DNA from: an uncultured Verrucomicrobiae bacterium
GTDB taxonomy: Bacteria > Verrucomicrobiota > Verrucomicrobiia > Chthoniobacterales > UBA10450
Reading direction: 5' to 3'
Length of the DNA: 64,000 nt
Assembly (NCBI GenBank): GCA_963726745.1
Contig: CAVSDR010000003.1
Location: 800,001-864,000 of the forward strand
Shown here: one piece after another, positions 1 through 62,939 of the stretch
Numbering within the stretch: the first letter of the stretch is position 1
Layout: the number at the start of each line of letters is the position of its first letter
The notes under the pieces: generated by a model
The model's database searches: none
What the model was told of the DNA's origin: nothing
The model's input: the letters and a program-made list of their open reading frames with translations, nothing else
Made by a program: the position numbers and the translations under genes

Positions 1-297
1 AGCTGGAACGCGTCGACGCGGAGCAATCGCCTCCGCTTCCTCGGCGACGCGGGCGAGATGCTCCTGGCCGATGGCGTGCTCCAATTAGCCGACGAGACGC
101 AAATTTACCCAGCGCTTTCCGCGGGCTCGCATCACCCGGAATGGTTCGCGGCGATGCTGCCGGAGGTGCTCGCGGCTTTTCGGGAGCCGGCGCTTGCACA
201 CGCGAGCTTCGAGGAAGCGGCTGCCTGCCTCTCGTTAGTCCAGCGGGCGTACGCGACCGCAGATTGGCGGAGCGAAGCGCTTGCGCTTACGCCGTAG
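1..297 (+). CDS. 3' end of a gene entering from the left edge; possibly the C-terminus of a Gfo/Idh/MocA-type oxidoreductase
   Basis: Frame 1 is open from base 1 (SWNASTRSNRLRFLGDAGEML...) to TAG at 295-297. The family guess rests on weak resemblance only. Confidence 0.45.
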   Translation, partial: SWNASTRSNRLRFLGDAGEMLLADGVLQLADETQIYPALSAGSHHPEWFAAMLPEVLAAFREPALAHASFEEAAACLSLVQRAYATADWRSEALALTP

Positions 298-1609
298 CCA
301 CGCGCGCGAGGCGCTGCTTCGGCAGGAAAGTGTCGGCAATGATGTTGAGCGCTTCGTCGAGGTCGGCGCGCGAATGGTTCGCGGTCACGCAGGCGCGGAA
401 GCAGATGCCTTCCTGCGGCACTGCGGGATAATCCACCGGCGCAACCCAGAGACCGCGGCGGCGCAGCTCGTGGCCGAGTTGATACATGCGCGCGCGGTCG
501 CCCACGATCAGCGGCATGATGTAAGTGGTCGAGGCGCCGGTGTTGATCCCCATGGCGTTGACCTGCGCACGGAAATAGTCGGCATTTTCCCAAAGGCGCT
601 GGCGCAGCTGCGGCTCGCGGTTGGCGATCTTGAGCGCGGTCAAAATGGCGGCAATGACCACCGGCGGGAGCGCGCAAGAGTAGACGTAGGAATGCGCGTA
701 GAGCCGGAGGTAATCGAGCGTCTCGCGCGGGCCGGCGACGAAACCGCCAAGCGCGCCGAAGGCTTTCGAAAAGGTGCCGTAGATCAGCGGAATGCGATCG
801 CCGAGGCCGAAGTGCTCGGCCGCGCCGCGACCGGTGGGGCCGCAGGCGAGCATCGAGTGCGCTTCGTCGATGAAGACGCTCGCGCCATGCGTGTCGGCCA
901 CGTCGAGCAGCTCCTGAAGATTTCCGAAATCGCCATCCATCGAGTAGATGCCCTCGACGATCACGAGCTGGCGCTTGCCTTTGCGGCGCTGGAGCGCGGC
1001 GTCGAGCGAAGCGGCGTCGTTGTGCTCGAAGCGCTCCATCCGGCAACGCGAAAGGACGGCGCCATCGCGCGAACTCAAGTGCGAGCGATTATCCATCACC
1101 GCGACGTCGGTCTTGCGGAGCAATCCGGAGATCGTGCCGAGCGCGCCGCCGAATCCGCTATTGAACAGAATCGCGTCGTCGCGTCCGAGAAATTGGGCGA
1201 TCGCGCTCTCGAGCTCGCGATGGAGATCGGTCATCCCGGAAAGCGTGGGCGAGCCGCAGGCGCCGACGCCATATTTAGCCAGCGCCTCGTTCGCCGCGGC
1301 GATGACCTCGGGGTGATTCGCAAGGCCGAGGTAATTGTAGGAGCAAAGGTTGATCACCGGCTGCTCTTCGCCCTCGTAACGGATGGTAGTGCGGGCGTCG
1401 GCGCTGCCGAGCATGGCCGGCTCGTAGAGGGCGGCTTCCCACGCGCCGGCCTGGCGCCATGCGGTGAAGCCGGCGGGCGGAATGAGCGGGTCGCTGCTCT
1501 CGCCGACGACGAAATCACCCAAGCTCAGGGAGGAATCAAATCCGTCTGGCGACGGTGAGTCCTCTCGTTTGCGCACGTGCACTGAGTCAGGATTGGGACA
1601 AATCTGCAT
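287..1609 (-). CDS. PLP-dependent alpha-oxoamine synthase family protein (BioF/Kbl/serine palmitoyltransferase-like)
   Basis: Motifs NLCSYNYLGL, VEGIYSMDGD, DEAHS and GTFSKAFG (PLP lysine). ATG at 1609 chosen as start. Confidence 0.9.
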   Translation of the reverse strand: MQICPNPDSVHVRKREDSPSPDGFDSSLSLGDFVVGESSDPLIPPAGFTAWRQAGAWEAALYEPAMLGSADARTTIRYEGEEQPVINLCSYNYLGLANHPEVIAAANEALAKYGVGACGSPTLSGMTDLHRELESAIAQFLGRDDAILFNSGFGGALGTISGLLRKTDVAVMDNRSHLSSRDGAVLSRCRMERFEHNDAASLDAALQRRKGKRQLVIVEGIYSMDGDFGNLQELLDVADTHGASVFIDEAHSMLACGPTGRGAAEHFGLGDRIPLIYGTFSKAFGALGGFVAGPRETLDYLRLYAHSYVYSCALPPVVIAAILTALKIANREPQLRQRLWENADYFRAQVNAMGINTGASTTYIMPLIVGDRARMYQLGHELRRRGLWVAPVDYPAVPQEGICFRACVTANHSRADLDEALNIIADTFLPKQRLARVATA

Positions 1610-1778
1610 GGGAATCAACGCAATATCTCAGGGAAGTTCTCCCGGACGCCCGATGCCTGGCGGGAGAGCGCGACCCTAAGGGACGCGTCTGGCTCGCGCA
1701 TGTCTTTTTTCCGGAAGCCGGCGAGGCGAGCGCCGGGAGCAATCCGTGTCTCCGAAGCGCGCAGACCGCGCGAGCGGC

Positions 1779-2378
1779 CTAGGCCGAGGGCGCCGCGCTG
1801 ATCTCGTAGCGAATCGGCTTGAAGCGATAGTTGTTCGACATTTCCGCCGAGCAAGCGGTGAGGCCGACGATCAAGTCCATCTCCGCGCGCAGAGTAATGC
1901 TGTCGCCAGCTTTGGATTTCGGCGGGAGAATCGAAAGCGTCCCAGTCGTCGGATCGACCTCGACGTTCATGAAAAGGTTTAACGTGGTCGGGATGGCGTC
2001 GGGCGCGATCCCGAAGGGCTCGAGGTTGCGCACGAGATTCTCGAAGCAACTCGGATGATAGGCGTCGTTCTGATAAATAATTTCGAAGGTCTCCGGGCTG
2101 CAAGGCGTGAGGAGAAAATCGTGCCGGCCGACGGTGTCGTCGAGGATGGTGAACATCGGCCGGCTGCGATTGGAATAAAGCAGGTGGCCTTTGGTCAGGT
2201 AAATCGTGTTCGCGTAGTCGATGCTGCGACCGGAAGAGAGCCATTCCGCGCGATCCGCCTGGTTAAACGCGGTCAAGTCGGCGACCTGCTCGCCCTCGGG
2301 ATCGATCACGCGCAGGATTTGGCCGCGAGCCAACGTGAACGCGCCGCCGGTTTGCGGCGCCAGGTGATGCGAGGTCAT
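1779..2378 (-). CDS. Urea carboxylase-associated family protein (DUF1989)
   Basis: LRVIDPEGEQVADL, HDFLLTPCS, HPSCFENL, LNLFMNV, LRAEMDLIVGLTACSA. ATG at 2378 lies just after the upstream stop. Confidence 0.88.
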   Translation of the reverse strand: MTSHHLAPQTGGAFTLARGQILRVIDPEGEQVADLTAFNQADRAEWLSSGRSIDYANTIYLTKGHLLYSNRSRPMFTILDDTVGRHDFLLTPCSPETFEIIYQNDAYHPSCFENLVRNLEPFGIAPDAIPTTLNLFMNVEVDPTTGTLSILPPKSKAGDSITLRAEMDLIVGLTACSAEMSNNYRFKPIRYEISAAPSA

Positions 2379-2382
2379 GAAG

Positions 2383-4242: not shown

Positions 4243-5541
4243 ACGAGGGCCGGGACCTTCTCGCTCACCGCTTCCGCTTCCCGGAGCCGGCACCACCAGC
4301 CGCTTTCGGCCAACGCCGGATGCTCAAAAGCTTCCCCGCGGCTTAGCGCCCGCAGCGCCTCGCCCAGGATCGTCGTCCGCACCTGACCGTCGCTCAGGTC
4401 AAAGACTCCGGCTTCATAGTGTTCGTTAGGCTGCGTCACCAGGCTGTCCCAATCGAAGGCGCCGAGAAGCGACCACGCTGTCAGCGCCCGCACTTCAATC
4501 CCCTCGGCCCGGGCCGTGGTTGCGGCTTCCCAGGCCGCCATCAACCAGCGCAGTTGTTCCTCCGGCGCCGCGGCCAAATGCACTTCTGTGAGCGCAATCG
4601 GCCGGCGATAACGCTCGTGCGCTTCGCGAATCGCCCGCTCGAATCCACAACCCACCTCCGCCGCTCGCACCGCCACTTCATCGGCGTAAACTTCAAAGCC
4701 ATTCCTGCCGTGCGTTCGCTCTTGGTAATTCTCGATCTGCTCGTCCAGAAACCGATCGCTGGTCACGTAGTGATTGATCCCGATGATGTCCGGCGGCGAC
4801 AGCTTGTCGGCTAACGAGTCCAACTCCGCCGCCGTGGCGCCGTGCGCGAGCAGATGCGCTCGCAGGGGATGGCCTGGCTGCACCCGGCCACTGAGTAAAT
4901 CCCATCCAAGCCAGCGGCGCTCGTTATTGAAATCCGCCTGGTAACGCAATCGCGGCGTGCTGAAGGTGCGCCCGAGATCGTCGGTCTGCACAAAGAATAG
5001 CCGACGAGTTCACCCGACGGATCGCCCTCATCGCCAGGTCGCTTCCGCGGGCTTGCTGGAGCAGGGCCCGCACGAAAGTCGCCTCGTCACGGCCGTGCGG
5101 AAACCAGTGTCCGTAAAGTCCGCAAAAGCGCGCGGTCGTTACAGGTTCGTTGATCGGCGTGTAGGCGTCGATCCATGGATAACGTTCCGCCACGCGCGCG
5201 GCAAAGGCGGCAAACTTTTCCGGAAACGCCGGGTCCACCAGGCTGGTGTAACGCGGCCCGCTTCCATGGTGCAGCAGGCCGGCAATCGGCCGCAGCCCAA
5301 GTTCCCGCAAGCGCGCGAGGCCAGCGTCCGTCCAGCGCCAGTCGCACTCCTCCGGGGAATCAGGAGCGATAGTTTCCCACAAGATGGGAAATCGCAGCCG
5401 CTGGAGCCCCAGCGCCGCAAAACGCCCGAGATCTTCCAGCGCGCGTTCCCAGTGGCCGGTGCGTTCCAGTTGGTTCGAGAAGCGGTTGCCGACCCGGTTG
5501 ATCGTGCACTCCGCTCCGCCCCAAATCTCCAGCGCGTCCAT
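4239..5541 (-). CDS. Glycoside hydrolase family 1-like protein, frameshifted near 4992
   Basis: IWGGAECTINR, GLLHHGSGP and TPINEP in ORF 4924-5541; GINHY, ALTEVH and WSLLGAFDW in ORF 4239-4991. Removing one T from ATTCTTTGTG joins them. Confidence 0.85.
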
Positions 5542-5571
5542 CGGGTTCTCCGCGTCTGCGCGGAAGCTTCG

Positions 5572-6783
5572 TTAGGCCGCAGTGATCTCGAGTGCGCGCT
5601 CATCCACGAGCACATCCTCAATGTGCTGCTCGAGCTGCTCGACGATCGATTCCCAGGAATTCTCCTCGGCCAGGGCGATCCCCCGCTCGATCCGCACGGC
5701 GTCGGGATGCGCCGCCGCCTGCGCGCACGCCCGGGTAAAGCTCGCATGATCCGGAGCCACCAGGACGACATCGCTAAATTGCCGCACCACGTCCTGCACC
5801 GGCGTGGAGACAATCGGACGGCCGGTGGCCATGTATTCCAGCGCCTTGGTCGGATTGATAAATCGGGTCGCTTCGTTCATCGCGAACGGCATCAGGCAGA
5901 CATCGAAGCCCCTGGCGTAGCTCGGCAGCTCGGCGTAATCGCGTCCGCCCAGCCAATGGAGATTGGCGCGTTGCGGGAAGCTTTGCGGGTCGACCTTGGT
6001 ATGCGGGCCCACCACGACCACGCTGCCCTTCGTCTCGTCGGCTAATTTGCCTAACAAGTCGTAATCCATCCGCTCATCGACCACCCCGATGTAGCCGAAA
6101 ACGGGCCCGGGGAGGCCTGCCAGGTCCGCCGGCAATTCCGTCAAGGGATCGCGCGCACGGCCGAAGTGATCGTGCTCCACCCCGCAACCGAAGGAATAGC
6201 AGTTTGGGTTCAGGACACGCTTGGCTTCCCAGATCTTCGGGCCGCCGGCAAAGACCACGTCCGCCAAAGCCAGCAACTCGCGTTCGCGGCGGACCAGTTC
6301 CGCCTGCGCGCCGCGGAAAAGCGAGAGCTCATCCATGCAATCGTAGACGATCGCGCGTTGCCCGAGGTGCCCGGCAAAAGCGGTCACCGCCATCGGATCG
6401 TAAAACCACTGCACCGGCGACCGGAAACTCTGCCCGAGCGGCCCAGCGAGCACTGCCTCGACCACGCGCCGGCGTTCGCTATCCACCCAGGCACCATCGC
6501 TCCAGCGCGCGGCCGGAATTTTTGTTTCCAGGACGACGACGTTTGGATAGTCGGCCACTTCACGGAGCACCGTCTCGGAATGCGTAACCTCAGTGGACGG
6601 CGTGGGACCCTCGACGAAAAGGACGCGATGCCGTTGCGATAAACGCGAATGAAACTGCTGCGGCCGCTGCCAGACCCAATCCCAACGCAGATGCGAGTGC
6701 ACGATGATTGGATAATCATTGAGCGCTTCCAGCTCCGTGCCCCATTGCTTCCCATCCCGCTGGCTAATTGATCCCGATATCAT
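5572..6783 (-). CDS. GT-B fold glycosyltransferase (GT4/TuaH-like)
   Basis: SHLRWDWVWQRPQQ, VYDCMDEL, GYIGVVDERMD, NPTKALEYMATGRPIVST. Confidence 0.88.
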   Translation of the reverse strand: MISGSISQRDGKQWGTELEALNDYPIIVHSHLRWDWVWQRPQQFHSRLSQRHRVLFVEGPTPSTEVTHSETVLREVADYPNVVVLETKIPAARWSDGAWVDSERRRVVEAVLAGPLGQSFRSPVQWFYDPMAVTAFAGHLGQRAIVYDCMDELSLFRGAQAELVRRERELLALADVVFAGGPKIWEAKRVLNPNCYSFGCGVEHDHFGRARDPLTELPADLAGLPGPVFGYIGVVDERMDYDLLGKLADETKGSVVVVGPHTKVDPQSFPQRANLHWLGGRDYAELPSYARGFDVCLMPFAMNEATRFINPTKALEYMATGRPIVSTPVQDVVRQFSDVVLVAPDHASFTRACAQAAAHPDAVRIERGIALAEENSWESIVEQLEQHIEDVLVDERALEITAA

Positions 6784-7039: not shown

Positions 7040-8351
7040 TCAAAGCGCGGTCCGCCTTGGCCGCGGCAACGCGAGCAATAACTCCGCGGTCCGCACGGTC
7101 GCGCCGTGATGCGCCGCCAGGACCGCCTTGGCCTCGTGCACGAGCCCGGCGCAGCGCGCGGGATCGAGTAATAACGCCTCCAAAATGCCGGCTAATTCCC
7201 CGGCGGCGGCGATCTGCACCGCGCCCCGGCGTTCCACCAGGGTGCGCGAAAGCACGGCAAAATTTTCCATGTGCGGGCCGAAGACCACCGGGCGCCCGGC
7301 GAGAATCGGCTCCACCGGATTCTGCCCGCCTGTGGTCGTTAGGCTCTTGCCCACGAAGACGACCGTAGCCACGCCATACCAAGCGCGCAGCTCACCCGTG
7401 GTATCGAGCAGGAGAGCGTCAAAGCCGGCCGCCGCTGCTTCCCCGGCCAGCTCGCTCCGGCGCACCCAGCGCAGGCCTAACGAGTCCAGCATCCGCGCGA
7501 TCTCGGTGGTGCGCTCGACGTGACGCGGGGCGATGATCAAGAAGGCGTCGGCTAAGCACGCGCGCAGCTCCAGGAAGGCGCGCGCGAGGATTTCCTCCTC
7601 GCCATCGTGCGTGCTCCCGCCGAGGACGATCGGGCGCGTGCGGGCGATGCCGGCCGTTTCCAGAAGCGCGCGCGGGCCGGCGGAATCAGGCGCGGCTTCG
7701 CTTGGGTCGTATTTAATGCTGCCGACTTCGTGAATCGTCTCCGGGCGCACGCCGATGGCTTGCCAGCGCTCCGGGTCGCCGCGCTCCTGTACGCAGACGA
7801 GGTCGAGCCGGCGAAAGATCGGGCGCACGAAAGCGCGGAACTTCCGGAAGCGGCGCTCGGAACGTGGCGAGAGCCGGGCGTTCACGAGTGCCAGTGGAAT
7901 CCCGCGCGCCTCGGCCAACGCGGCCAGGTTCGGCCAGACTTCCGCTTCCACGAGGACGATCCGCTCCGGACGCAGGACGGCGAACGCGCGGCGCATGATC
8001 GGCCAAAAATCGAGCGCGTTGTAGAGCACCAGCATCCACTCTGGCGCCTCACGCTTCGCGAAGGCGTAGCCGGTGGTCGTGGTCGTGGTCAGGGCGCAGC
8101 GGAAATCCGGATCGAGCTCGCGCAATTTAGCCGACAACTTGAGCGCGATCGCGACCTCGCCCACGCTGACCGCGTGCATCCAGGTGTGCGGACGCGCCGC
8201 CGAGCCGCGCCCGCACTTCCTCGGAGTAAACGCCGAAACGCTGCCCAAAATTTTCCCGGTAACCGCCCCGGCGCCGCATCTTCAGGAAGTAGCCCGGGAG
8301 AAAGAAGAGCAGCCCGAGCGGAAAGAGCAGGTTGTAAAGCAGCCGGATCAT
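7040..8351 (-). CDS. waaA: 3-deoxy-D-manno-octulosonic acid (Kdo) transferase, frameshifted near 8200
   Basis: N-terminal anchor MIRLLYNLLFPLG in ORF 8127-8351; WMHAVSVGE, EAEVWPN, GSTHDGEE, APRHVER, DTTGEL and GGQNPVEP in ORF 7040-8248. Confidence 0.93.
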
Positions 8352-8354
8352 TCG

Positions 8355-8909
8355 TTAGGCCGGGACGAGGAAGAGCACCTCGGTGGCGCCGTAGGTTTTT
8401 CGGCGAAGCACGCTCCAAAGCGCGGATTCGAACAGCTCTTCCTCCGGCCGTTTCTCGAGCACGAACAGGCCGTCGGGCGCGAGCAACTTCGGCAGCATTT
8501 CGTGCTCCAGAAGTTGCCGGGTAAATTCGCCGCCGGCCTTGGTCTTCTCATACGGAGGATCGGCGAAAATGAGGTCGAAGATTTCGCTCGCGGCCGGCCC
8601 GCGATTGAGAAAACCGAAGACTTCCTGCTGCGTGATCCGGCCGCGGAGTTTCGTGCGCACGAAGTTTTGCTCGATCGCCTGGACGGCGGCGCGGTTCTCC
8701 TCCACGAACAAGGCCGAGGCCGCGCCGCGGCTGAGCGCCTCGATCCCAAGCGCGCCGGTGCCGGCGAAGAGATCGAGCACGCGCGCGCCGAGCACGCGGT
8801 CGGCCAGGCTGGAAAAGATCGCGGCCTTCACGCGATCCATCGTCGGGCGCACGTCGGTCTCCGGCACGGCCAGGCGGAGGCCGCCGGCGCTTCCGGCGAT
8901 CACCCTCAT
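8355..8909 (-). CDS. rsmD: 16S rRNA m2G966 methyltransferase
   Basis: MRVIAG, RPTMDRVK, VLDLFAGTGALGIEALSRGA, IFADPPY. Confidence 0.95.
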   Translation of the reverse strand: MRVIAGSAGGLRLAVPETDVRPTMDRVKAAIFSSLADRVLGARVLDLFAGTGALGIEALSRGAASALFVEENRAAVQAIEQNFVRTKLRGRITQQEVFGFLNRGPAASEIFDLIFADPPYEKTKAGGEFTRQLLEHEMLPKLLAPDGLFVLEKRPEEELFESALWSVLRRKTYGATEVLFLVPA

Positions 8910-11387: not shown

Positions 11388-12226
11388 ACCGCCGGCGCGT
11401 CGGTCACCGTCTCGCCGCCCGGCGCGGCGGAGTCGAGCTCCCAGAGAAGCCAATCGTCGTTGGTGACATATTTGCGGAGCTTGTTGTCCCAGCGTTGCGG
11501 AATTTCGCGCGAAAGTTTCTCGAGGAACGGGAGGAGCGGGTTCTGTGGCGGGTGGCGTTCTTCGCGCTCGTCCATCGGGATCGCTTTCCAGTCGAAACGC
11601 TCGCGATATTGCGCAAAGCCGAAGCCGTCGAAGAAATTGCCCGCGCCAATAAGCGGCATGTACCACAGGCTGGGGATGCCGCGCGGGTTTGGCTTTACCG
11701 GGACTTCGTTGGCTAATTTAGCCAGCAACTCGGCGCCCTTGGGATCGTCGCGCAAGTGTTCCTGCAAAGCGTCGAACGCCGGGAAACTCACCGGCGGACT
11801 AACGAACAGCACCGGCTTCATCTGCTGGCGCGAAAGGATGATCTCGTGCGCGGTCCCGACGCTGTAAATATTCGTCGGGCAATAGGCGATGGTGAAGTCG
11901 CTCGTATCGACCATCCGCAAGTCGATGTGGAGCGTTTCCCAAAAGTTCTCCGCGCAGCGTGCGCGGGTTTCGTCGCCCGCCTGCCCGGGCTCGAAGCTCC
12001 AGGTCTCGCGCACGTCGATCGTGTTGATGTCCTCGAGGCCGTATTGATGCAGCCCGCGCACGGCCGGCTTAAACCAGGGATCGAAGACGACTGAGCCTAA
12101 CGAGCGCAGGAAATCGCCCACGCGATTGCGCCAGCCGGCGGTTTTCTCCTCCACGCGTGAGGCCACGAAATCCATCGGCCCGGAGAGGTAGATGCGCGCG
12201 CCGCGCAGGTGATTGTTCGTGCTCAT
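11384..12226 (-). CDS. Hypothetical protein with a nucleoside 2-deoxyribosyltransferase-like N-terminal domain
   Basis: IYLSGPM, WR, VFDP, DLRMVDTSDF and GTAHEI match the NDT/DNPH1 pattern; long C-terminal extension. Confidence 0.6.
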   Translation of the reverse strand: MSTNNHLRGARIYLSGPMDFVASRVEEKTAGWRNRVGDFLRSLGSVVFDPWFKPAVRGLHQYGLEDINTIDVRETWSFEPGQAGDETRARCAENFWETLHIDLRMVDTSDFTIAYCPTNIYSVGTAHEIILSRQQMKPVLFVSPPVSFPAFDALQEHLRDDPKGAELLAKLANEVPVKPNPRGIPSLWYMPLIGAGNFFDGFGFAQYRERFDWKAIPMDEREERHPPQNPLLPFLEKLSREIPQRWDNKLRKYVTNDDWLLWELDSAAPGGETVTDAPAV

Positions 12227-12257: not shown

Positions 12258-12647
12258 CTATTTCTTGGCCTCGTCCTCTTTTGGCTTCTCGGCGGCTTCT
12301 TTCACTTTGATCTGCGAGGCCGAGGTCACCACGATCTCGACCTTGTCCTTGAACTCGACAATCTTGCCACTGACTGCGAGCTCCTTGCCTTTGTATTGCT
12401 CGACGTCGCCGACGGCGGCCGCATCCTTGGTGCTGATGAAGACCGTGAAGCGCGCGCCGCCGCTGCTCAGTTCGATGAAGGTGTTGCCGCCACTGGCTTT
12501 ATTCACCCGCTCGGCTTTGCCGGTGACGGTGGCGGTTTCGCCGATGTGCTTGGCGGCTTCCTCGGCGGTGTATTCCGCGCCGCTCTCGGCGTGCGCTAAC
12601 GAAACCAAGGTCGCGGCCAGGATGCTGACTAATTTTATCGCTCGCAT
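12258..12647 (-). CDS. Small secreted OB-fold protein
   Basis: Signal peptide (MRAIKLVSILAATLVSLAHA), EAAKHIGETATVTGK, GKELAVSGKIVEFK. Confidence 0.7.
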   Translation of the reverse strand: MRAIKLVSILAATLVSLAHAESGAEYTAEEAAKHIGETATVTGKAERVNKASGGNTFIELSSGGARFTVFISTKDAAAVGDVEQYKGKELAVSGKIVEFKDKVEIVVTSASQIKVKEAAEKPKEDEAKK

Positions 12648-13721: not shown

Positions 13722-14161
13722 GCAGCGATCCCTTTCTCCAGGCGGCCCTCGAAGAAGCCCGCACCGGCCTCGCCGCCGGCGGCATTCCCATCGGCAGCGT
13801 GCTCGTTTTAGACGGCAAGATCATTGGCCGCGGGCATAACCAGCGCGTGCAAAAAGGGAGCGTGATCCACCACGCGGAAATGAATTGCCTGGAAAATGCC
13901 GGCCGTTTGCCGGGCGAAGTTTACCGGCGCTGCACGATTTACTCGACGCTTTCACCCTGCCCGATGTGCAGCGGCGCGATCGTCCTTTACGGCATCCCGC
14001 AGGTAATCATCGGCGAGAACCAGACCTTCCTCGGCGCCGAGGAAACCCTGCGGTCGCACGGCGTGAGCGTGGAGGTGCGGCAGGACGCGGAGTGCATCGA
14101 GATGATGCGGCGTTTCATTGCCGAACAGCCGCAGCTCTGGAACGAAGATATCGGCGTCTAA
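13718..14161 (+). CDS. Zn-dependent cytosine/nucleoside deaminase
   Basis: GIPIGSVLV, HAE, PCPMC, C-terminal WNEDIG; ATGA overlap with the upstream gene. Confidence 0.92.
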   Translation: MSSDPFLQAALEEARTGLAAGGIPIGSVLVLDGKIIGRGHNQRVQKGSVIHHAEMNCLENAGRLPGEVYRRCTIYSTLSPCPMCSGAIVLYGIPQVIIGENQTFLGAEETLRSHGVSVEVRQDAECIEMMRRFIAEQPQLWNEDIGV

Positions 14162-14172
14162 CGAGTCGTCTC

Positions 14173-15697
14173 CTAGGCGACCCGGCTGAGCTGCGCGCGC
14201 AAGGCCGCGCTACCTTCGATCGTTTCCTGGAGCAGATGCTGCGCGTCGGGGAAAGCGCGCACCCGCAGGCAGACCTGGTAGGAGAAGAGGCTGCGCGAAA
14301 GTTTAAGCAGCAGACTGTTGAGCCCGAGGAGCGCGCGGCTCCAGCGATTCGTCCCGAGGGCGAGCGGGAACGGCGCGGGCACGCCGCGTTCCTCGAGCAC
14401 TTCGTAGCCGGCTTGCTCGAAGAGGGCGCGCAGCGACGCAAAGGTGAAGAGCCGGCGATGACCCAGGCCGAGAATGCCTTTGCGACTGTAATTAAATTGC
14501 CCGAGCAGGAGCATCGCGCGGGTGACAAAGAAAGCCACGTTGGCCGCGGTCACGATCACTTCCGGCTGCTGCCCCGCGCATCCGCCGGCGGAGGTCGTCG
14601 ACAAAAGTTTCCGGGTCGTGCAAATGCTCGACCAAGTCCATCAGGAGGATCTGGTCGAAATTGCCGACATCCTCTGGCAAGCGCGGCGCGGGCACATAGG
14701 GCACTGGCTGCGCGAGGTCGTTAGCCGCGAAATCAAGCGCGGTCACGCTGCAATCGCGCGCGCGCAATTCCGCGGCGACATTCTCGTGGCCGAGGCCAAG
14801 CTGGAGGACCGACTTTCCACGCGGGCAAGCCTCGAGCGCGAAAGTTTGCGAGGATTCGAAGCCGAGCTTGTCGCTGTGCCGGCCGAGCGCGGGGTTCACG
14901 TCGAACTTCCGGTCGTAAAACAAATGGATCCCGCAGAGGCGCGCCTTGATCGTCGCCTTGCAGACGTCCCAGGCATACTTCATCCCGTTCACGTGGCAGA
15001 TCTCGTCGCCGTAGAAAGTCGGGATCGGCAGCTCGGCGATGTGCAGTTTGCGCAGGACGAACTGGATGATGATCTCGGTGTCGAAATGGAAATCGTTGGT
15101 GTTTTTCTCGAACGGCACCTGGGCGAGCGCCGCGGTGGAGTAGAGTCGGTAGCCGCTGTGGAACTCCGAGAGCTGCGTGCCGAGCAGGCGGTTTTGAAAT
15201 TGTGTCAGCACCTGATTGCCGAGCCATTTGTAAGCCGGCATGCCGCCGGCGCGGGCCGCGGCCTTGTCGATCATGCGCGAGCCAAAAACCGCATCGGCTT
15301 GGCCCCGGACGAGCGGTTCCAAAAGAGCCGGCAACTTCTCGGGCGCGTATTGCCCGTCGCCATGGACCAGCGCGACGATGTCGAAGCCATGATCGATCGC
15401 GTAGCGGTAGCCGAGTTTTTGATTCCCGCCGTAGCCCTGGTTCCGCGGGGTGCGCAGGATGGTGATCTTGAACGCCGCGCTTCCCTGCTGAAAGCGCAGG
15501 CTGCTGGCAAAGGTGTTGTCCTTCGAGGAGTCGTCGATGATCAGGACCTCGACGTCGGGTGAATGCAGGCTCGCCGGGATGCGGGCGAGGACGCGTTCGA
15601 TCGTCGTCTCCGCATTATAGGCGACGATGAAAATGAGCAGACGCTTGCCGTTCAGGTCAAAAACAGCCGGCGTGCTGGGGGTTGAGTCCGCGCGCAT
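14173..15697 (-). CDS. Glycosyltransferase family 2 fused to a class I methyltransferase-like domain, frameshifted near 14575
   Basis: IVAYNAE, IIDDSS, NQGYGGNQK, HGDGQY, then DLVEHL and ANVAF...GIL. GGAGG precedes ATG 15697. Confidence 0.85.
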
Positions 15698-16967: not shown

Positions 16968-17090
16968 GGCTTCTCCCAATAGATGCAACCGGAGGCGGCT
17001 TTGGATTCAAAGATTTTTTTCGCGCGTGGTCGCGGTCTCGAGGCTTGCGGCTTGACCATCTCGCTGCCTAACGAATAGCGTGCGCCCTTA

Positions 17091-18773: not shown

Positions 18774-19223
18774 CTACTCGTCGGCGTCTTTTTTACCCAG
18801 CGTTTTCAGCCGGGTCCGTAGCTCCTTGAGCCGGGCTTCGGTGTAGGTCAGCTCCGCATTATTCGCCTCGAGGGGCGCCAGCGAGCCGCCTTCGGAATCA
18901 ATTCCCTCCTTGGCCACTTTCGGCCGCTTTTTCAGCCACGCGGTCTGCTCCTGGAACAACTTCGTCCGCTCCTTTGTGGATAGTTTTTCGTAAAGGCGCA
19001 CGTAGGCGATGTAGAGCTGCGCGTCGGTCAGGTCGGCCACGTGGCGGCTCAAGCGGTTCATCTCCGCCTGCGTCTCGGCTTGGCGGAGATCTTGCAGGGA
19101 AGTTTTGATCGCCGGTGAAAGCGCCGGATACCAATCGTCCGGGGTGATCGCGCGGCTGCCCTGCGCGGAGGCGAACGTGCCTAACGAGAGGAAAAAGAGC
19201 GCGCCAAGAAAGAACTTTCGCAT
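18774..19223 (-). CDS. LprI (DUF1311) lysozyme-inhibitor-like secreted protein
   Basis: Signal peptide, TQAEMN, QTAWLKKR, GGSLAPL. Confidence 0.75.
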   Translation of the reverse strand: MRKFFLGALFFLSLGTFASAQGSRAITPDDWYPALSPAIKTSLQDLRQAETQAEMNRLSRHVADLTDAQLYIAYVRLYEKLSTKERTKLFQEQTAWLKKRPKVAKEGIDSEGGSLAPLEANNAELTYTEARLKELRTRLKTLGKKDADE

Positions 19224-21245: not shown

Positions 21246-21461
21246 ACCGAGGCGAATAGCAATAATGATTCCCAAGAGAAACAGATGGAATCCTGCAGCT
21301 CGCGAACTGCTAGATAACCCATTCATTTCCTTTTGGTTAGAACCTATAGTGAAATTTTTTGGCGGATTCCGGAGCCGTTCTCACATCTGCAAATCCGTAA
21401 AAATGGCCGACACTTTCTTGCGAAGACGCGTCTGCGGGGAGGTGGCTAACGAATCTTGCAC

Positions 21462-32126: not shown

Positions 32127-32217
32127 GATCTTGCTGCCTAACGAGTCGTCAAGCCGGCGTCCGGCATCGATTCGTTGGCTCGCCCAGAGAGGAGCGCGCC
32201 CCGGCGCTCTTGGCAAC

Positions 32218-44852: not shown

Positions 44853-44920
44853 AGGTGCGGGTTGCGAGGGTTGCCGAACGATTGGAGCATGACCTCGCCT
44901 ACGCCGGCCACTTCTATTTT

Positions 44921-47966: not shown

Positions 47967-50071
47967 ATGAATTGCTCGCTCCGGATCGTTGGTCTGCTCG
48001 CGCTCATCTCGCTGGCTGTTTCCGCAAACGCCGCGCCGGAGGCGACGCTTGTCCCTTTCCGGTTAGAGGCGCCGCAGGCACAGGCGGTTTTCCTCGCGGG
48101 CGAATTCAATCATTGGAGCACGAGCGCCACCCCGATGCAGCGCGACGGCCAGGGCCGCTGGAGCGTGAGCGTGCCCCTGCTTGAGGGGCAGCACAGCTAC
48201 AAGTTTCTGATCGACGGAAAGTGGGAGATCGATCCGATGAATCCCGAGGTCACGACCGATGGCTTCGGCGGGAAAAACTCGGTCGTGAAGGTGATCGACG
48301 ATCGGATCGATCCGGTAGTCGAGGAGAAGGACGCGGTCGGCGCAGAAGCGGCGCGGCTGCTCGGGCAAGGCGAATTCGCAGCGCTCGAAAAACGCGCGCA
48401 GGAATATCGCGAAACCAAGGCGTGCTATTCCGATGGCCTCTGGATGTTGACCAATTTCTACGACGGCTTGGGCGCGGAAAACGAAATGCGCGACCATGCG
48501 GATTGGCAGCCTTGGTTTGAAAAAATCGAGCGCTGGGGCCGCGAGTTTCCCGAATCGATCACGCAGCCGGTGGTATTGGCAAACGGCTGGCGCAAGTATG
48601 CCGAAGAGGCGCGGAGCGTGGCGCCGCCGGGCGATGAAAAGGCGCGCGCCACTGGCCAGGGAACGCCTCGCAAAAGCGCGCACCATCCTTAAGGCGGCCG
48701 AGAATTTGCCAGCGCGTTGTCCGGTCTGGTATTCGGCCATGCAACAGCTCGCGCTCGCGCAGGGCTGGGAGCGCGAGGAATTCGAAAAGCTGCTGGCCGC
48801 GGCTGCGGGCGCGGAGCCGACCTACTATTCCTATTACGCGAATGCGGCGCTCTATTTTCAGGGCCAGGGGCGCGGCGCGTGGGAGAAAGTGGCGGAAGAG
48901 GCAGCCGAGAAATACGATCCCGCGGAAGGCATGGCCGCGTATGCGCGCACCGTTTGGTTCATGGAGCCGCGCTTCGGGAACCTCTTCGCGGAATCGGTCG
49001 TCGCCTGGCCGAAGCTGCGCCAGGGCTTTCTCGAGATCGAGAAGCGCTACCCGAATTCGCGTTGGAATTTAAATGCCTTTTGCCGCTTTGCGGTCCGCGC
49101 GGGCGACCGGCAAACAGCCAGCGAGCTCTTCGCTCGCATCGGCGCGAAGGGCGACCCGGATTGGGGCGGCTACGCGAGCTATGAGATGGCGCGGCTCTGG
49201 GCCGACCCGGCGACGCCTTCCTGGCGGATCGCTCCCATCCGCACGCTCAAGCCGAAATCGATCGTGCACGCCCTCGCCTTCTCGCCGGATGGCGGTGGTG
49301 TTTTCCGCCGATGGCAAGATGCTCGCGGCTGGGGCCGGTCAAACCTGGCGACCGACGGAGCCGGGCGTGGCCAAGGTCTGGGAAGTCTCGAGCAAACAAG
49401 AGATCGCCGCGGGCAAACCCACCGGCGTGGTCTGGAAAGTCGCCTTCACCCCGGATGGCAAAACCCTCGCGCTCTCCGGCGGGCAATGGGAAAGCCAGGC
49501 CGAGTCGAGCCTGCTCGACCTGGCGACGAAACAACTCCGCGCGCTTCCCTGGACTACGGGGCACGATCACGTGCTCAAGGGCGTGGCCATCTCGCCGGAT
49601 GGGGAGTCGCTGGTGACGGATTGTTATCAATCGATCACGGTCTGGAGTTTGACCGAGAACCGCGTTGTCTTCGAGCAGCGGAAGGTGCTGAAGGATTTCG
49701 TCCTAAAGCTCGCCTTCGCGCCCGACGGCAAAACGCTCGTGACCTGCGGCGCACCGATGCGCGGGCACAATGATGCCGAGCCGGGCGAGCTCACGCTCTG
49801 GGACACGACAACATGGAAACCGCGCAGCCCGCGCGCGCAAACCGATGCCGGCGGTCTGGTGGCGGTGGCTTATTCCGCTGATGGAAAGTGGATCGCGGGC
49901 GGCGGCTACGATCGTGCGGTCCACGTCTGGGACGCAGCGACCTTGGAGTCGAAAGTGATCTACCTCGGACACGAGGACATGATTGATGCGGTCGCCTTCT
50001 CGCCCGATGGCGCCATCCTGGCCTCCGGCGGCTACGACGGCACGATCAAGCTCTGGCGTTTCCCTCGTTAG
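47967..50071 (+). CDS. Secreted multidomain protein: CBM48/AMPK-beta-like domain, DUF4034-like helical domain and WD40 repeats; two frame breaks (about 48655 and about 49295)
   Basis: VFLAGEFNHW...YKFLIDGKWEIDP (CBM48); helical region in ORF 48496; FSPDG/GGYDG WD40 repeats in ORF 49073. Confidence 0.7.
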
Positions 50072-50183
50072 GCCGAAATTTAGCCTACTCGTTGTCCGCC
50101 GGGGGAGGAAGTGCTTGGCCGGCACGCCTGTTGACCAATCAAGCGTTGAGAGATTGGGCGATTGCGCCAAAATTACCCTCCCG

Positions 50184-51682: not shown

Positions 51683-53419
51683 ATGCCTGGTCCCGCTGAC
51701 TTCATCCAACGTTCGGTGCACGCCCTCGAGGCGGGTGGTCTTGCGGTCTGGGTGCGACGCGGCCTGGCCTTCCTCGTGATCGTCTTGCTGGCTCTTTTTT
51801 ATCTGATCCACGAGTTCCGCGGCCTGGCCACTTCGCAGGCGATGGACCAGGCGCAGATCGCGCGCAATCTTGCCAACGGCGAAGGCTTCCACACCGATCT
51901 CATCCGCCCGCTGGCCATCGGCCAGTTGCAGCGCGCCAACAAGGATGTCGCCCGGCGCATCTGGTCGGATACCTACAACGCGCCGCTCCCGCCGCTGGTC
52001 AACGCGGTCGCGCTTCGCCCGCTCAAGAGCCATTGGAAAATGTCGCCCGCGGAGGTGGTTTACTCCGGCGACAAGATCATCGCATTTTTCTCGATCTGCT
52101 TCTTCCTCGCCTCGGTCGCGGTCCTCTTTTTCGTCGCCCGCCGGCTCTTCGACGACCGGCTCGCGATCCTCGCCTGCGCGCTCATTCTCCTCTGCGATAT
52201 GATGTGGCAATACTCGCTCTCGGGTTTGCCGCAGATGCTGCTCCTCTTCCTTTTTAACAGCACGCTCTACGTGCTCGTGCGCGCGGTCCAGGCGCAGGCC
52301 GCCGGCGGCCGTGTGGGCCTTTGGCTGGCCGCGGTCGGCGCTGGTTTCGGGCTGCTGGCGCTCGCGCACGCGCTCACCATCTGGATCTTTTTCGCAGCGC
52401 TGGTCTACGCAGTGTTCTACTTCAAGCCCCGCGGCTGGGCGGCGCTGATCATCCTCGGAGTGTTCCTGCTTTTCTATGCGCCTTGGCTCTTGCGCAATTT
52501 CATCCTCACCGGCAATCCCGCGGGCGTGGCCTGGTATTCCGTCCTCGATGGAATCAACCAATCCGAGGCCGGCTACATGCGGCATCTCTCGATTGATTTC
52601 TCCACGATCACGCCCGGCCTGTTTAAGAATAAATGGACCGGCAATCTGCGCACGCAGCTCGGCGGTGTCTTTGGCTACCTCGGCTGGAGCGTGGCCGCGC
52701 TTTCCTTCTTCATTAGCCTGCTCCATCTCTTCAAGCGCCGGGAGACGGCGGCCATGCGCTGGCTGGTCCTGGCGATGTGGGCCGGGGCTGCTCTCGGGAT
52801 GGTGGTCTACGGCGTACACGAGGAACAAGGCGTGGCCGCGAACCAGCTTTACCTGCTTTTTGTCCCGATCATGACCTGCTACGGCCTGGCTTATCTCCTG
52901 GTGCAATGGAACCGCCTGGAGATTTCGATGAAGCTCGCGCGCATCGGCTTCATTACCCTGCTCTTTCTCCTCTGCGCGCTGCCGATGTTGCTGAACATGT
53001 TCCTGCCGCAGACGAACCGGCCTGGGGTGCATTGGCCGCCTTACATCCCGCCGTTTATTTCCGTGCTGAACGACTGGATGCGCCCCGAGGAAGTGATCGC
53101 TTCCGACATGCCGTGGGCGGTCTCGTGGTATGCCGATCGCCGCTCGATCTGGCTTCCGGAAACCGTTCCCGCATTCACTGAGCTGCACGATTACGGCGTC
53201 GTCGGTGCGCCGCTTAACGGCCTCTACCTTACGCCCGTCAGCGGCAGCCAGAATACCCTCAGCGACATCCTCAAGGGCGAGTATCGCGACTGGGCTGCGG
53301 TCATTTTGCGGAGTATCGATATCTCGAAGTTCCCGCTGAAGTGGGCTACGCTCCTCGGGCTGGAAGGCGAGTGCGTTTTCTTCGCCGATGTCGACCGCCA
53401 GCGCCTGCCTGCGCCCTAA
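51683..53419 (+). CDS. Multi-pass GT-C (PMT/ArnT-like) glycosyltransferase
   Basis: MDQAQIARNL, PLPP, many TM helices, PWLLRN. Confidence 0.7.
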   Translation: MPGPADFIQRSVHALEAGGLAVWVRRGLAFLVIVLLALFYLIHEFRGLATSQAMDQAQIARNLANGEGFHTDLIRPLAIGQLQRANKDVARRIWSDTYNAPLPPLVNAVALRPLKSHWKMSPAEVVYSGDKIIAFFSICFFLASVAVLFFVARRLFDDRLAILACALILLCDMMWQYSLSGLPQMLLLFLFNSTLYVLVRAVQAQAAGGRVGLWLAAVGAGFGLLALAHALTIWIFFAALVYAVFYFKPRGWAALIILGVFLLFYAPWLLRNFILTGNPAGVAWYSVLDGINQSEAGYMRHLSIDFSTITPGLFKNKWTGNLRTQLGGVFGYLGWSVAALSFFISLLHLFKRRETAAMRWLVLAMWAGAALGMVVYGVHEEQGVAANQLYLLFVPIMTCYGLAYLLVQWNRLEISMKLARIGFITLLFLLCALPMLLNMFLPQTNRPGVHWPPYIPPFISVLNDWMRPEEVIASDMPWAVSWYADRRSIWLPETVPAFTELHDYGVVGAPLNGLYLTPVSGSQNTLSDILKGEYRDWAAVILRSIDISKFPLKWATLLGLEGECVFFADVDRQRLPAP

Positions 53420-53444
53420 CGACCGCTCTCCCCTTCCCTTTGCG

Positions 53445-54833
53445 GTGACCACTCAAGCGAACAAACTTTTCGGGACCGATGGCGTGCGCGGCGTGGCCAA
53501 CGTCGAGCCGGTCACCGCCGAAACCGCGCTCAAGCTCGGACGCGCCGCCGCGCACGTTTTTACCCAGCTCAATCCGCGCACCCGGCCGGCCGATGCGCGG
53601 CCGAAGATCGTCCTCGGGAAAGACACGCGCCTCTCCGGCTACATGCTGGAGAACGCGCTCGTGGCCGGGATCACTTCGCTGGGCGTGGACGTGCTCGTGA
53701 TCGGGCCGCTGCCTACGCCGGGCGTGGCCTACATCACTCGTTCGTTGCGCGCCGACGCCGGCATTGTCCTCTCGGCCTCGCACAATTCCTATGAGGACAA
53801 CGGGATCAAATTCTTCCGGCACGACGGCTACAAATTAGACGACAAGATCGAGCACGAGATCGAGCGGCTGGTCTTCACCGGCGAGATCGACAACGTCCGC
53901 CCGACCGCGGGCAACATTGGCCGCGCCACCCGGATCGACGACGCGCTCGGACGTTACGTGGAATTCGCCAAGGCCAGCTTCCCGCGCGGGATGTCGCTCG
54001 AGAAAATGCGGATCGCGGTCGATGTGGCCAATGGCGCCGGCTACAAATCGACCCCGTGCATTCTGCGCGAACTCGGCGCGGACGTGCTCGTCTTTCATAA
54101 CGCGCCGAACGGGACGAACATCAACGCCCATTGCGGCAGCACCCACCCGGAGGAAATCCAGCGGCTGGTGCGCGAGACCGGGGCGCACGTTGGCCTAACG
54201 AATGATGGCGATGCCGACCGCGTGCTCCTGTGCGACGAGAACGGCGAGACCGTGGATGGCGACGAAATCCTGGCGATTGCCGCGATCGATCTCCTGCGCT
54301 CCGGGCAACTGCGCGAAAACACCCTCGTGGCCACGGTCATGAGCAACTTCGGCCTGGATGAGGCGCTCGAATCCGCCGGCGGCAAAGTTTTGCGCACGAA
54401 AGTGGGCGATCGCTACGTGATCGAGGAAATGGTCCGGCGCGACCTCAACCTCGGCGGCGAACAAAGCGGCCACATGATCTTCCGCGACTACAGCACGACC
54501 GGCGACGGCATTGTCAGCGGGCTGCAAATCCTGCGGATCATGAAGGCGACCGGGAAACCTTTGAGCGAACTCAAGCGCTGCCTGCAAAAGTATCCGCAGG
54601 CGCAGCGCAATCTTCGCGTCAAAGCGAAGCCTCCATTGGAGGAAATGCCCGCGGTCTTGCAGCTGGTGAGCGCGGCCGAACGCGAGCTGAACGGCAAAGG
54701 CCGCGTGCTCCTGCGCTACTCCGGCACGGAGCCGAAGATCCGTTTGCTGATCGAGGGCCGCGAGCGGACGCAAATCGACCAGCAGGCCGACCGGATCGCG
54801 GAAGCGATCGAGCGCGCGATCGGCGCGTCCTAA
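53445..54833 (+). CDS. glmM: Phosphoglucosamine mutase
   Basis: FGTDGVRG, GKDTRLSGYM, SASHN, DGDADR, GGEQSGH, RYSGTEP. Confidence 0.96.
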   Translation: MTTQANKLFGTDGVRGVANVEPVTAETALKLGRAAAHVFTQLNPRTRPADARPKIVLGKDTRLSGYMLENALVAGITSLGVDVLVIGPLPTPGVAYITRSLRADAGIVLSASHNSYEDNGIKFFRHDGYKLDDKIEHEIERLVFTGEIDNVRPTAGNIGRATRIDDALGRYVEFAKASFPRGMSLEKMRIAVDVANGAGYKSTPCILRELGADVLVFHNAPNGTNINAHCGSTHPEEIQRLVRETGAHVGLTNDGDADRVLLCDENGETVDGDEILAIAAIDLLRSGQLRENTLVATVMSNFGLDEALESAGGKVLRTKVGDRYVIEEMVRRDLNLGGEQSGHMIFRDYSTTGDGIVSGLQILRIMKATGKPLSELKRCLQKYPQAQRNLRVKAKPPLEEMPAVLQLVSAAERELNGKGRVLLRYSGTEPKIRLLIEGRERTQIDQQADRIAEAIERAIGAS

Positions 54834-59882: not shown

Positions 59883-59897
59883 CCAGCGCTTTCGGCG

Positions 59898-60765: not shown

Positions 60766-60908
60766 GCAGCGATGTTTACCGAATTGCCCGGAGGACACAA
60801 ACGGAAAGGAATTTCGCCGCGCGCCTTTTTCCCGAAAAACCGCGCGCGCCTCGGCTCGGCCGACTTCGCCGCTTGCACTCCGCGAGCGCACGAGGCAGCA
60901 TCGGCGCG

Positions 60909-61448: not shown

Positions 61449-62147
61449 CGGGCCCGAGCGGCGAGCGGTGAGCGCGAGAATGCGCGCTTTTTTGCCGGCA
61501 TAATCCAGCGCACGAAAAGTCCGGATCTCCTCGAGGCGGCGCAGGCCGTTGAGGGTATCGAGGAATTTCGTGTAGCTCCCGGCCAGCTCCCCGGTCTCGG
61601 CATAACGTCCGCGCAAATCCCGGCAGCGATACGCTCCGGGATTTTTCGCGGCGAAAAGGTGGAAGCGCAGCCAGCGCCGATCGGTCCGCGAGACCTTTTG
61701 CGTCTTCCGAAAGAAGGCCACGAAAAGCAGGAGCACGAGATAGGTATCGACCTGCGCCTGCAGCTCGAGATTGCGCGCATACTCCTCCGCGTGGATCTCG
61801 CGCGCGCCTTGCTGGAATTGCAGGGCCGCGTGCAGCGCATGGTTGATCTCCTCCACAAAGGCGATCAGCGAGCGGATGTTCGCGTCGCTTAACCCATTCC
61901 GCGGGTCGTGCCGCTCGAGCTGCTCGATCAGCCAGCGCGAGTAATAAATGCCGACGTAAAGCTGGTCGTCCGCGCGCCGGAGAAAAGTGCGCGCGAGTTC
62001 GCTGAGCTCGCGCGCGGAAGCGCCAGCGGCTTTTGTCAGTTGCGCGCAGCGCGGCCCATCGATCAGGCAATCCTCAAGGTTGATCCCGACCTGCGCATAG
62101 GTCCGCTCAAAGAGTTTTTGGATCTGGCTGAAGAGCGTCTCGTTCAT
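61431..62147 (-). CDS. Hypothetical protein (possible zincin-like fold)
   Basis: Clean 238-aa ORF coupled to the upstream gene; EEINH and LELQAQVD motifs. Confidence 0.75.
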   Translation of the reverse strand: MNETLFSQIQKLFERTYAQVGINLEDCLIDGPRCAQLTKAAGASARELSELARTFLRRADDQLYVGIYYSRWLIEQLERHDPRNGLSDANIRSLIAFVEEINHALHAALQFQQGAREIHAEEYARNLELQAQVDTYLVLLLFVAFFRKTQKVSRTDRRWLRFHLFAAKNPGAYRCRDLRGRYAETGELAGSYTKFLDTLNGLRRLEEIRTFRALDYAGKKARILALTARRSGPLLLGG

Positions 62148-62836
62148 CCCAGAAGAGAGGATGCGCTCGCACTGTCGAGATTGAGCAGGCGATCGGTCAG
62201 GTCATTCAGCGCCAGGCGCACTTCGCGGAAGCGGTCGGCTAATTCTTCGAAGACATCGCTCAACTCGCAGCGGCGCGCGGTCGCGTGGGACGAGACGAGC
62301 TGGTAATTACTCCGCCCCACCTGCTCGTAAAACTTCAGGTCGGGCGCGCCCCGCAGGCTGCGGCGCTGCGTATTTTCGTGGAAGATTCCGCTGAGGAATA
62401 ACGAGTAGTTCCCCACGTGCGCCCGCAGGAGGAAAGCCTGCTCGGAAGAGGCGCGGGTGAGCGCGATCAACATGTCGGAAATATATTGCCGGCCGCGTTC
62501 CGGCGGCAGGTGCGGACTTTGCAGGCCGTTCATGCGCGAGAACGTTTCCAGGAGCGAGGCGACGTAATCGCAGAGCTTGCGGTCGTTAATCCCGGCCTGC
62601 TGGAGCACGTAACGCGCGAGCACGTAAAAGTAGAACTGCGAGGAAATCGCCAGCTGCCCGGCGTTTTCCAGGATCGCCCGGATGAGCCGTGGGCTGTCGA
62701 GCACGGCGTCGCGCGTCTCGGCGTCGCCCAGCAGATCTGCCAGCGAGACCGACTCGGTTTGCGAGCGCGCCAGGGTGCGCACCACAAAGTCAAAATCCGC
62801 CGCGGTAAACCGCTCCCGACAATTCGCTCGAATCAT
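62144..62836 (-). CDS. Hypothetical protein
   Basis: GNYSLFLSGIF, FYEQVGRSNY, LADRF; ATGA overlap with the downstream gene. Confidence 0.8.
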   Translation of the reverse strand: MIRANCRERFTAADFDFVVRTLARSQTESVSLADLLGDAETRDAVLDSPRLIRAILENAGQLAISSQFYFYVLARYVLQQAGINDRKLCDYVASLLETFSRMNGLQSPHLPPERGRQYISDMLIALTRASSEQAFLLRAHVGNYSLFLSGIFHENTQRRSLRGAPDLKFYEQVGRSNYQLVSSHATARRCELSDVFEELADRFREVRLALNDLTDRLLNLDSASASSLLG

Positions 62837-62939
62837 CGAGATCGGAGTATGAGCAGGCGCCGGGCCGTTGGCAAGAAAGCCTGCCGCCGGTGAAGTTGCC
62901 GGCTCTTTTTCGCCTAACGAGTCGTGGGCCCGGCGGCCG

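Follow-up and report, generated by a model that had tools for sequence, protein, structure and literature searches.

A hyper-abundant DNA word of one Chthoniobacterales family, possibly an uptake-like self tag, matches the recombination core of the family's integrons

Why does one short DNA word recur throughout an ordinary stretch of a soil bacterial chromosome, and what reads it? We examined a stretch of 64,000 nucleotides from an uncultured Verrucomicrobiae bacterium (G000:C3:800001-864000; hereafter the window), whose source assembly, G000, comprises 3.41 Mb in 7 contigs at 64% GC. Three nested words were counted, namely the heptamer core CTAACGA, the 9-mer GCCTAACGA and the 10-mer GCCTAACGAG. 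With them, an uptake-like genomic signature is now seen throughout a family of soil Verrucomicrobia that are abundant and for the most part uncultured, and what is new here is that the word is identical to the recombination core of that family's attI and attC sites. The question bears on what reads hyper-abundant genomic words and on how soil integrons swap cassettes between species.

Heptamer search of the window revealed 37 copies of CTAACGA (25 on the plus strand and 12 on the minus strand), compared with 3.0 expected and a maximum of 8 in dinucleotide shuffles. The 9-mer was found 24 times, and the 10-mer 13 times against 0.10 expected. An earlier note on this DNA had reported at least 37 heptamers in two position lists, 24 9-mers, 13 exact 10-mers and one-mismatch copies at 6049 and 40249; its lists match the heptamer positions exactly, both word counts were reproduced, and GCCTAACAAG stands at both of the latter positions. 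The sites are given below by strand; cores were located by heptamer search, 9-mers and 10-mers by word search, and the tolerated variant GCCTAACAAG, which has 93 copies genome-wide, by variant count.

232..238, minus, core
4423..4429, minus, 9-mer
4811..4817, plus, core
5569..5575, minus, 9-mer
6049..6058, plus, tolerated variant
7336..7342, minus, 9-mer
7475..7484, plus, exact 10-mer
8352..8358, minus, 9-mer
11799..11805, plus, core
12095..12104, plus, exact 10-mer
12596..12602, plus, core
14158..14164, plus, core
14718..14724, minus, core
17066..17074, plus, 9-mer
19179..19188, plus, exact 10-mer
20230..20239, plus, exact 10-mer
21446..21452, plus, core
25567..25573, minus, 9-mer
25647..25653, minus, core
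26647..26653, minus, core
27077..27085, plus, 9-mer
27810..27816, minus, 9-mer
28388..28397, plus, exact 10-mer
31316..31325, plus, exact 10-mer
32136..32145, plus, exact 10-mer
34353..34361, plus, 9-mer
37629..37635, minus, 9-mer
38714..38720, plus, core
39115..39121, plus, core
40249..40258, plus, tolerated variant
41503..41509, plus, core
41924..41933, plus, exact 10-mer
42113..42122, plus, exact 10-mer
43616..43625, plus, exact 10-mer
46303..46312, plus, exact 10-mer in the gene of 719 amino acids (aa) at 44855-47011, also read in an orthologue alignment
50064..50073, minus, exact 10-mer
53416..53422, plus, core
54193..54201, plus, 9-mer
62912..62921, plus, exact 10-mer

The signal is genome-wide and not confined to the window, as the earlier note had supposed. 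Across the 3.41 Mb of G000 we counted 2025 heptamers (1034/991 in the two orientations), 1312 9-mers and 820 10-mers, corresponding to one core per 1.7 kb. Against an order-3 Markov model of the genome it was the most over-represented word at every length from k=7 to 11, with 820 10-mers compared to 6.1 expected; GCCTAACGAGT was observed 321 times against 0.6 expected. Codon nulls were computed on our own crude gene calling, in which 2541 genes took up 81% of the genome. Twenty synonymous shuffles within genes gave a mean of 8.7 10-mers, whereas 599 were observed, a 69-fold excess, and codon permutation gave a mean of 2.2; for CTAACGA in genes the corresponding figures were 1460 observed and 126 in synonymous shuffles. 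The word therefore survives both the codon-preserving and the Markov comparison that the earlier note had proposed.

Alignment of the G000 copies yielded the logo G(87%) C(75%) CTAACGA G(64%) T(44%), with no conservation beyond about +11; the flanks showed codon periodicity only, and no conserved flank. Counts of single changes revealed that position 1 prefers G, then C, and position 2 C, then G, then A. Positions 3-7 and 9 are strict, position 8 is G with A tolerated, and position 10 accepts G, A or C, not T. The strict core is hence CTAAC-A, and the strict part read as its reverse complement is TCGTTAG.

By the same crude gene calls, 72% of the words lay within genes and 575 of the 2025 cores were non-genic. 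Genic cores occupied the two sense frames free of a TAA stop (288 and 279 copies) and three antisense phases (614, 176 and 93 copies), in the third of which the TAG of the word is the gene's own stop. The word accounts for 22% of TTA codons and 20% of CTA codons in genes, and in 257 of the 2541 gene calls a word supplies the stop codon through its TAA or TAG. Words per gene were Poisson-distributed once gene length was allowed for. That the word results from composition, codon preferences or a recurring peptide might be suggested by the three-base periodicity of the flanks, which is seen since most copies are genic; the 69-fold excess over synonymous shuffles, the several hundred-fold excess over codon permutation and the spread over five codon phases and non-genic DNA reduce this explanation to a negligible chance, and the synonymous null together with the phase spread rules out a codon or peptide artefact. 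Because the word is found in either orientation, in every open frame and in intergenic copies, shows no replichore skew and exceeds the synonymous null 69-fold, we conclude that the signal resides in the DNA itself and is not produced by composition, codon usage or a protein motif. As a side observation, TAG was the commonest stop among the gene calls (908, compared with 850 TGA and 783 TAA), which is unusual at 64% GC.

Density along the genome was steady, at about 22 CCTAACGA per 50 kb, and 50-kb bins revealed no replichore skew. The strand split of the 10-mer in the window, 12:1 toward the plus strand, would suit a polar signal of the Chi, KOPS or AIMS type read by RecBCD/AddAB or FtsK. Genome-wide, however, the split was 445:375, the 50-kb bins showed no switch with GC skew, and the plus excess in the window is local and tracks gene orientation. 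With no replication-linked skew, polarity of the Chi/KOPS/AIMS kind is ruled out, and we regard such a role as extremely improbable.

Relative orientation of neighbouring sites was random (535/496/494/493). Gaps shorter than 200 bp numbered 108 against 228 expected, while gaps of 400-1600 bp numbered 1026 against 815 expected; the words are thus spaced more evenly than chance. Such uniform density and even spacing, with orientation irrelevant, are what selection for regular spacing might produce if the word were bound by a nucleoid or chromosome-organising protein. A 300-fold density range within the family and the existence of word-free members fit a housekeeping role poorly, though, and no candidate protein was found, so that we hold this explanation to be improbable. 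Known architectural sites come in tens rather than thousands, or else show a strand skew. A dif-like double site built from two words was also considered and rejected, close inverted pairs numbering just 14, with no unique site. Gaps above 12.8 kb were in excess (7 against 0.9 expected) and mostly of lower GC. One 35-kb region, C7:49300-85007, has a GC content of 0.58, holds one word only and carries a gene of 1871 aa; judged by its lower GC, it is probably acquired DNA.

We then compared genomes, taking as enrichment the count relative to that of the reversed word (control). The 10-mer equalled or exceeded its control in all 24 other genomes drawn from the genus (51-1549 copies against controls of 8-57), the two poorest reaching only about 1.2-1.5x control, and 16 genomes of other families had 0-14 copies. 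The 9-mer stood at 2.3x control or higher in 36 of 39 further family genomes and, across 15 other families of Chthoniobacterales, never rose above control in the 261 genomes counted. In an even draw of 151 genomes of the family, 139 had the 9-mer at 1.5x control or above; the ratio was <1.5 in 12, 1.5-4 in 55, 4-12 in 49 and at least 12 in 35. Density within the family ranged from 4 to 1355 9-mers per Mb, with genus medians from 626 (g23) and 569 (g21) down to 30 (g29) and 18 (g17), and congeneric species differed up to 16-fold. Across the phylum we counted CGTTAGGC, the reverse complement of GCCTAACG; it never exceeded about 1.1x control in 398 genomes outside the family, compared with 5.1x in G000 and 6.4x in G062. 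The survey of Chthoniobacterales and other Verrucomicrobiota that the earlier note had suggested thus singles out one family, and the word is a lineage-specific trait of that whole family. These tallies include the unpublished genomes G001, G008, G042, G191, G206, G334, G340 and G419; no conclusion rests on the unpublished genomes alone.

The same note had proposed to look for dialects in relatives. No replacement dialect was found in the stretches of word-poor relatives that were sampled (400 kb of G002, 200 kb of G174 and 200 kb of G364). The signal in the G364 stretch resembles both attC ends, which suggests an array within it. The G002 stretch (G002:C10:1-400000) has a moderately enriched word of its own, GCTCGGGATGAC/GTCATCCCGAG (34 copies against 2.6 expected in 400 kb), and a tandem repeat of the TAGGAGTA type. 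Outside the family, G764, G776 and G791 (g149, another family of the same class) carried 145-251 copies of CGTTAGGC, about equal to control, most phylum genomes having 5-40; this could reflect large cassette arrays or a weak genome-wide signal. Among sequencing runs no RNA run was listed, and small shares (0.13, 0.05) appeared in one soil study.

An origin for the word is suggested by the integrons of the family. In two papers, the integron core is given as RYYYAAC/GTTRRRY with crossover within the complementary GTTRRRY (PMC3518468), and as holding a conserved AAC triplet and the cleavage point (PMC3518468, PMC12614218). Since GCCTAAC fits RYYYAAC and the following GAG occurs in the attI and attC of this lineage, the word reads as the R box GCCTAAC plus three bases, that is, as the recombination core common to both kinds of site. 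Within G000 itself, outside the window, a cassette array lies at G000:C6:736293-745290 (L060:6293-15290). Its attC sites number at least 16, measure about 123 bp each, start (R/Y)YCTAACGAGAACAAGAT and end CATCGC(A/C)TGGTTAG(R)(Y), and the opposite strand carries small open reading frames without a Pfam match. One end of the array, at C6:745282, resembles attI, the array being situated downstream of tRNA-Leu(CAA) (C6:734100-734183). No integron integrase was found in G000, where the best match scored 80 bits against a curated cut-off of 265, and the array is thus a CALIN (cassette array without integrase). An empty-site comparison found its flanks syntenic in G049, G014 and G019, with the intervening DNA unalignable. 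The attC search also detected four small clusters:

C4:24532-25438, small attC cluster
C4:150072-151067, small attC cluster
C3:633136-634739, small attC cluster
C2:58979-59086, small attC cluster

Inspection of relatives' integrons revealed, 141-151 bp upstream from the integrase match, YCTAACGAGAA(G/T)T in all five IntI loci with enough upstream DNA (a sixth, with only 96 bp upstream, was left out), and its position marks it as the attI junction. Arrays with the same kind of attC, GCCTAACGA(C/G)...CATGGTTAGGC, also occur in sister families that lack the genome-wide word, and this attC end was met again in records whose titles name Chthoniobacterales, Candidatus Udaeobacter and Spartobacteria. 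GCCTAACCATG, which forms the opposite end of attC, was not enriched in G000 (23 copies, compared with 1312 of GCCTAACGA). Between species, attC sites were 87-100% identical while flanking genes were 65-83% identical (L060:7444-14910 compared with G002:C3:235697-247097, G005:C2, G018:C9 and others). Across the genus, cassette ends are thus exchanged or else homogenised, and an attC identity so far above gene identity means that DNA moves between these species. The earlier note had said that none of the named systems has this sequence; it had missed that the word is no orphan but equals the integron core of its own family.

Because the word matches the recombination core at ten of ten positions, the main rival to an uptake-like role is that its reader is IntI or an IntI-derived protein. 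The words would then be attI-type duplex R-box half-sites, serving as attG-like landing pads or docking sites, or would be products of abortive strand exchange with attC DNA. The strict core includes the AAC triplet and cleavage point described in PMC3518468 and PMC12614218, and the latter states that attI is bound as duplex DNA and that cassettes can enter genomes at attG sites. All attC of the G000 array begin (R/Y)YCTAACGAGAA, the attI-like motif lies about 145 bp upstream of intI in 5/5 of the relatives' integrons, the attC type recurs in sister-family arrays, and the other attC end is not enriched. The family is also rich in integrons: 88 of the 151 genomes had IntI over the curated cut-off, with up to 5 matches per genome, and at E <= 1e-30 IntI was present in 27 of the 35 richest but only 3 of 12 word-free genomes, these relatives not being independent. 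Many of the family's IntI copies are split or have in-frame stops and look like pseudogenes.

Other observations fit an integrase reader less well. In word-rich G000, G024 and G353 no IntI was found, and G346, whose IntI is intact, carries just 13 copies, so that IntI as present-day reader is neither necessary nor sufficient; G002 combines a large array with few words, and the sister families share the attC type without genome-wide words. The 72% of words that lie within genes stand where cassette insertion would harm, and no cassette inserted at a word could be shown. Dispersed words share the R box with attI and attG sites, but no hairpin partner, L box, conserved flank or inverted pairing was found at them, attC anatomy, in which RYYYAAC and GTTRRRY bound an imperfect hairpin of about 60-140 bp, being confined to the C6 array and the four clusters. 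They also lack a cassette or nearby integrase and number thousands, in housekeeping genes, and no known integrase reaction writes a half-site by substitution. On balance, we consider an integrase-type reader unlikely, though likelier than the other rivals.

The words themselves arose by substitution. In the 719-aa gene at 44855-47011, picking the longest open frame failed for about half of 22 orthologous loci, and the 11 well-aligned congener rows were read. Words appeared in these without insertions or deletions, through TCGGTCGGC -> TCGTTAGGC and GCCGAGCGAG -> GCCTAACGAG; some of the word-creating substitutions alter residues, and the word columns differ among species. At the 10-mer at 46303 a near copy, GCCTAACAAG, was present in one relative only, with unrelated codons in the others.

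Positional conservation was measured on about 200 orthologue pairs, with phase-matched 7-mers as the expectation. Compared with word-rich G048 (coding DNA 71% identical), 46 of 105 G000 words were in place against 16.1 expected; compared with word-poor G002 (74% identical), 8 of 92 were in place against 18.3 expected. Sites with 0/1/2/3/4 mismatches numbered 46/7/9/19/15 in G048, with 9 more at 5-7 mismatches, and 8/5/24/24/21 in G002, with 10 more at 5 mismatches; 8 of 13 G002 words were also in G000. The in-place conservation, the turnover and the scarcity of intermediates indicate that words are maintained between rich species yet turn over.

A mobile modification or repair specificity, for instance a methyltransferase with a mismatch nuclease acting like very short patch (VSP) repair, might convert near-cognate sites and protect the words. 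This would account for one-off variants at or below expectation, for the all-or-none states of orthologous sites and for densities up to 16-fold different among congeners; a second CTAA-centred word in only 3 of 34 genus genomes is also what quickly exchanged specificity genes would give. The short-range repulsion and the integron-core identity are left unexplained by it, and known VSP repair acts on one transition with small biases, not 100-fold. Searches for Vsr (PF03852) gave nothing in G000, G002 or G227, while matches were present in the richest genome, G316, and in word-free G050. A Vsr-driven bias was accordingly rejected, with no match in G000 and no correlation with the word, methyltransferases not having been surveyed. 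We judge a repair specificity quite unlikely.

The reading that we favour, tentatively and at somewhat less than an even chance, is a self tag of the uptake-sequence kind, which derives from the integron core and is maintained through biased DNA exchange. Biased exchange is preferred because it is the only process known to us that writes a short word through genes by substitution. GCCTAACGAG would be a duplex-DNA 'self' word, written by point substitutions into ordinary genes and kept far above the mutation-selection expectation. Homologous DNA bearing the word would be taken up preferentially, or would preferentially survive and recombine, and molecular drive would spread word-bearing alleles, as it does the DNA uptake sequences (DUS) in Neisseriaceae and the uptake signal sequences (USS) in Pasteurellaceae. 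The same tag would mark cassette DNA, being the attI/attC core, and may have been recruited from arrays, where it was possibly the most abundant lineage-specific word in an ancestor. We infer that the biased step is uptake or recombination and that the integron core gave rise to the tag, not the tag to the core.

The likeness to DUS and USS is extensive: a short non-palindromic word repeated hundreds to thousands of times, roughly once in 1-2 kb, in both orientations, in genes in all open frames and between genes, of substitution origin, over-evenly spaced, sparse in atypical DNA and family-wide at varying density. DUS of Neisseriaceae are read by the minor pilin ComP, and uptake-type self words are, to our knowledge, known experimentally from two proteobacterial families only. 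The earlier note had proposed a sequence-specific uptake, recombination, repair or chromosome-organising system; the part that stands is a lineage-specific DNA-level word like the uptake sequences and HIP1, while roles of the Chi or KOPS kind are removed by the lack of replication skew.

Several results weigh against a self tag. USS and DUS have many singly mismatched copies beside perfect ones, whereas here one-off variants at strict positions numbered 94 against 116 expected with the word masked, without enrichment, and orthologous sites compared with G048 were all-or-none with rare intermediates. ComEC, DprA and secretins are present in G000, in keeping with uptake, but equally so in word-free relatives. 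Only one protein of the group has a ComEA-type HHH_3 domain, a secreted nuclease fusion that carries it at the C-terminus in 13 of the 14 other genus genomes searched; no such domain was found in G000, whose orthologue (G000:C4:17254-17847) ends before it. HHH_3 presence did not track word density at genus level (rho 0.07), and HHH_3 was absent from 13 of 13 genomes of g22, where the word stood at 4.7x control. An apparent association of HHH_3 with the word (30 of the 35 richest genomes) was rejected, as it vanished at genus level and in within-genus contrasts. A logic of 'one tag per fragment' further predicts repulsion between the second word and the first, and no such cross-repulsion was seen. 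No inverted terminator pairs occur, unlike in DUS and USS, and given the exact match to an integrase target the reader may be an integrase-type protein.

Our literature search found no report of uptake sequences or competence in Verrucomicrobia, which also weighs against a self tag; we know of no competence in this phylum. The exact words were absent from the library searched, nothing turned up on GTTAGGC as an over-represented word, and no listed result linked Udaeobacter with an integron, transformation, competence or oligonucleotide.

A self-recognition word may have been recruited from the integron core, with one protein specificity for (C)TCGTTAGGC marking cassettes and tagging the chromosome, so that DNA exchange between relatives would be coupled to cassette capture; or an integrase-type reader may write its half-site genome-wide. 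Taken together these seem possible, if rather doubtful. Under either variant, the relationship between integron and genome would be of a kind not described before. In Vibrio cholerae, natural transformation supplies cassettes to the chromosomal integron (PMC12614218), in keeping with the favoured reading of biased exchange. The core identity gives a testable handle on a 10-bp duplex, with purified integrase or cell extract. The range of 4-1355 per Mb and the restriction of the second word to 3 of 34 congeners make the reader findable by phylogenetic profiling.

Two further systems were compared. HIP1 of cyanobacteria, GCGATCGC, is a palindrome linked to methyltransferases; like the present word it is hyper-abundant, lineage-specific and written into genes, whereas GCCTAACGAG differs from its own reverse complement. 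The NTS/SRM repeats read by Ssn single-strand nucleases are, according to PMC11893778, hairpins of about 30 bp clustered around genes and tied to Neisseria transformation. They too occur in hundreds of copies, but GCCTAACGAG is 10 bp long, forms no hairpin and is evenly spread inside genes; Ssn/NTS was ruled out by this anatomy, the ssn gene itself not having been searched for.

The second word family, GYYGGCTAA (reverse complement TTAGCCRRC), has the CTAA centre in common with the main word. It had 1139 copies in G000 and was enriched in only three of 34 genus genomes, G000 (6x control), G011 (2.9x) and G015 (1.7x). Word search located 25 copies in the window:

85, second word
1275, second word
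4806, second word
6037, second word
6759, second word
7187, second word
7547, second word
8127, second word
11708, second word
11718, second word
15966, second word
16041, second word
21782, second word
22076, second word
22439, second word
30045, second word
34765, second word
35864, second word
38151, second word
40091, second word
51511, second word
59879, second word
60049, second word
62234, second word
63632, second word

Its copies were mostly genic and evenly spread, with roughly exponential spacing, and showed neither repulsion nor attraction toward the main word once 80 overlapping hybrids (TCGTTAGCC...) were set aside. The logo reads S-A-W-n-K-Y-GYYGGCTAA-W-T-T, with A at 81% five bases upstream and an A/T-rich tail.

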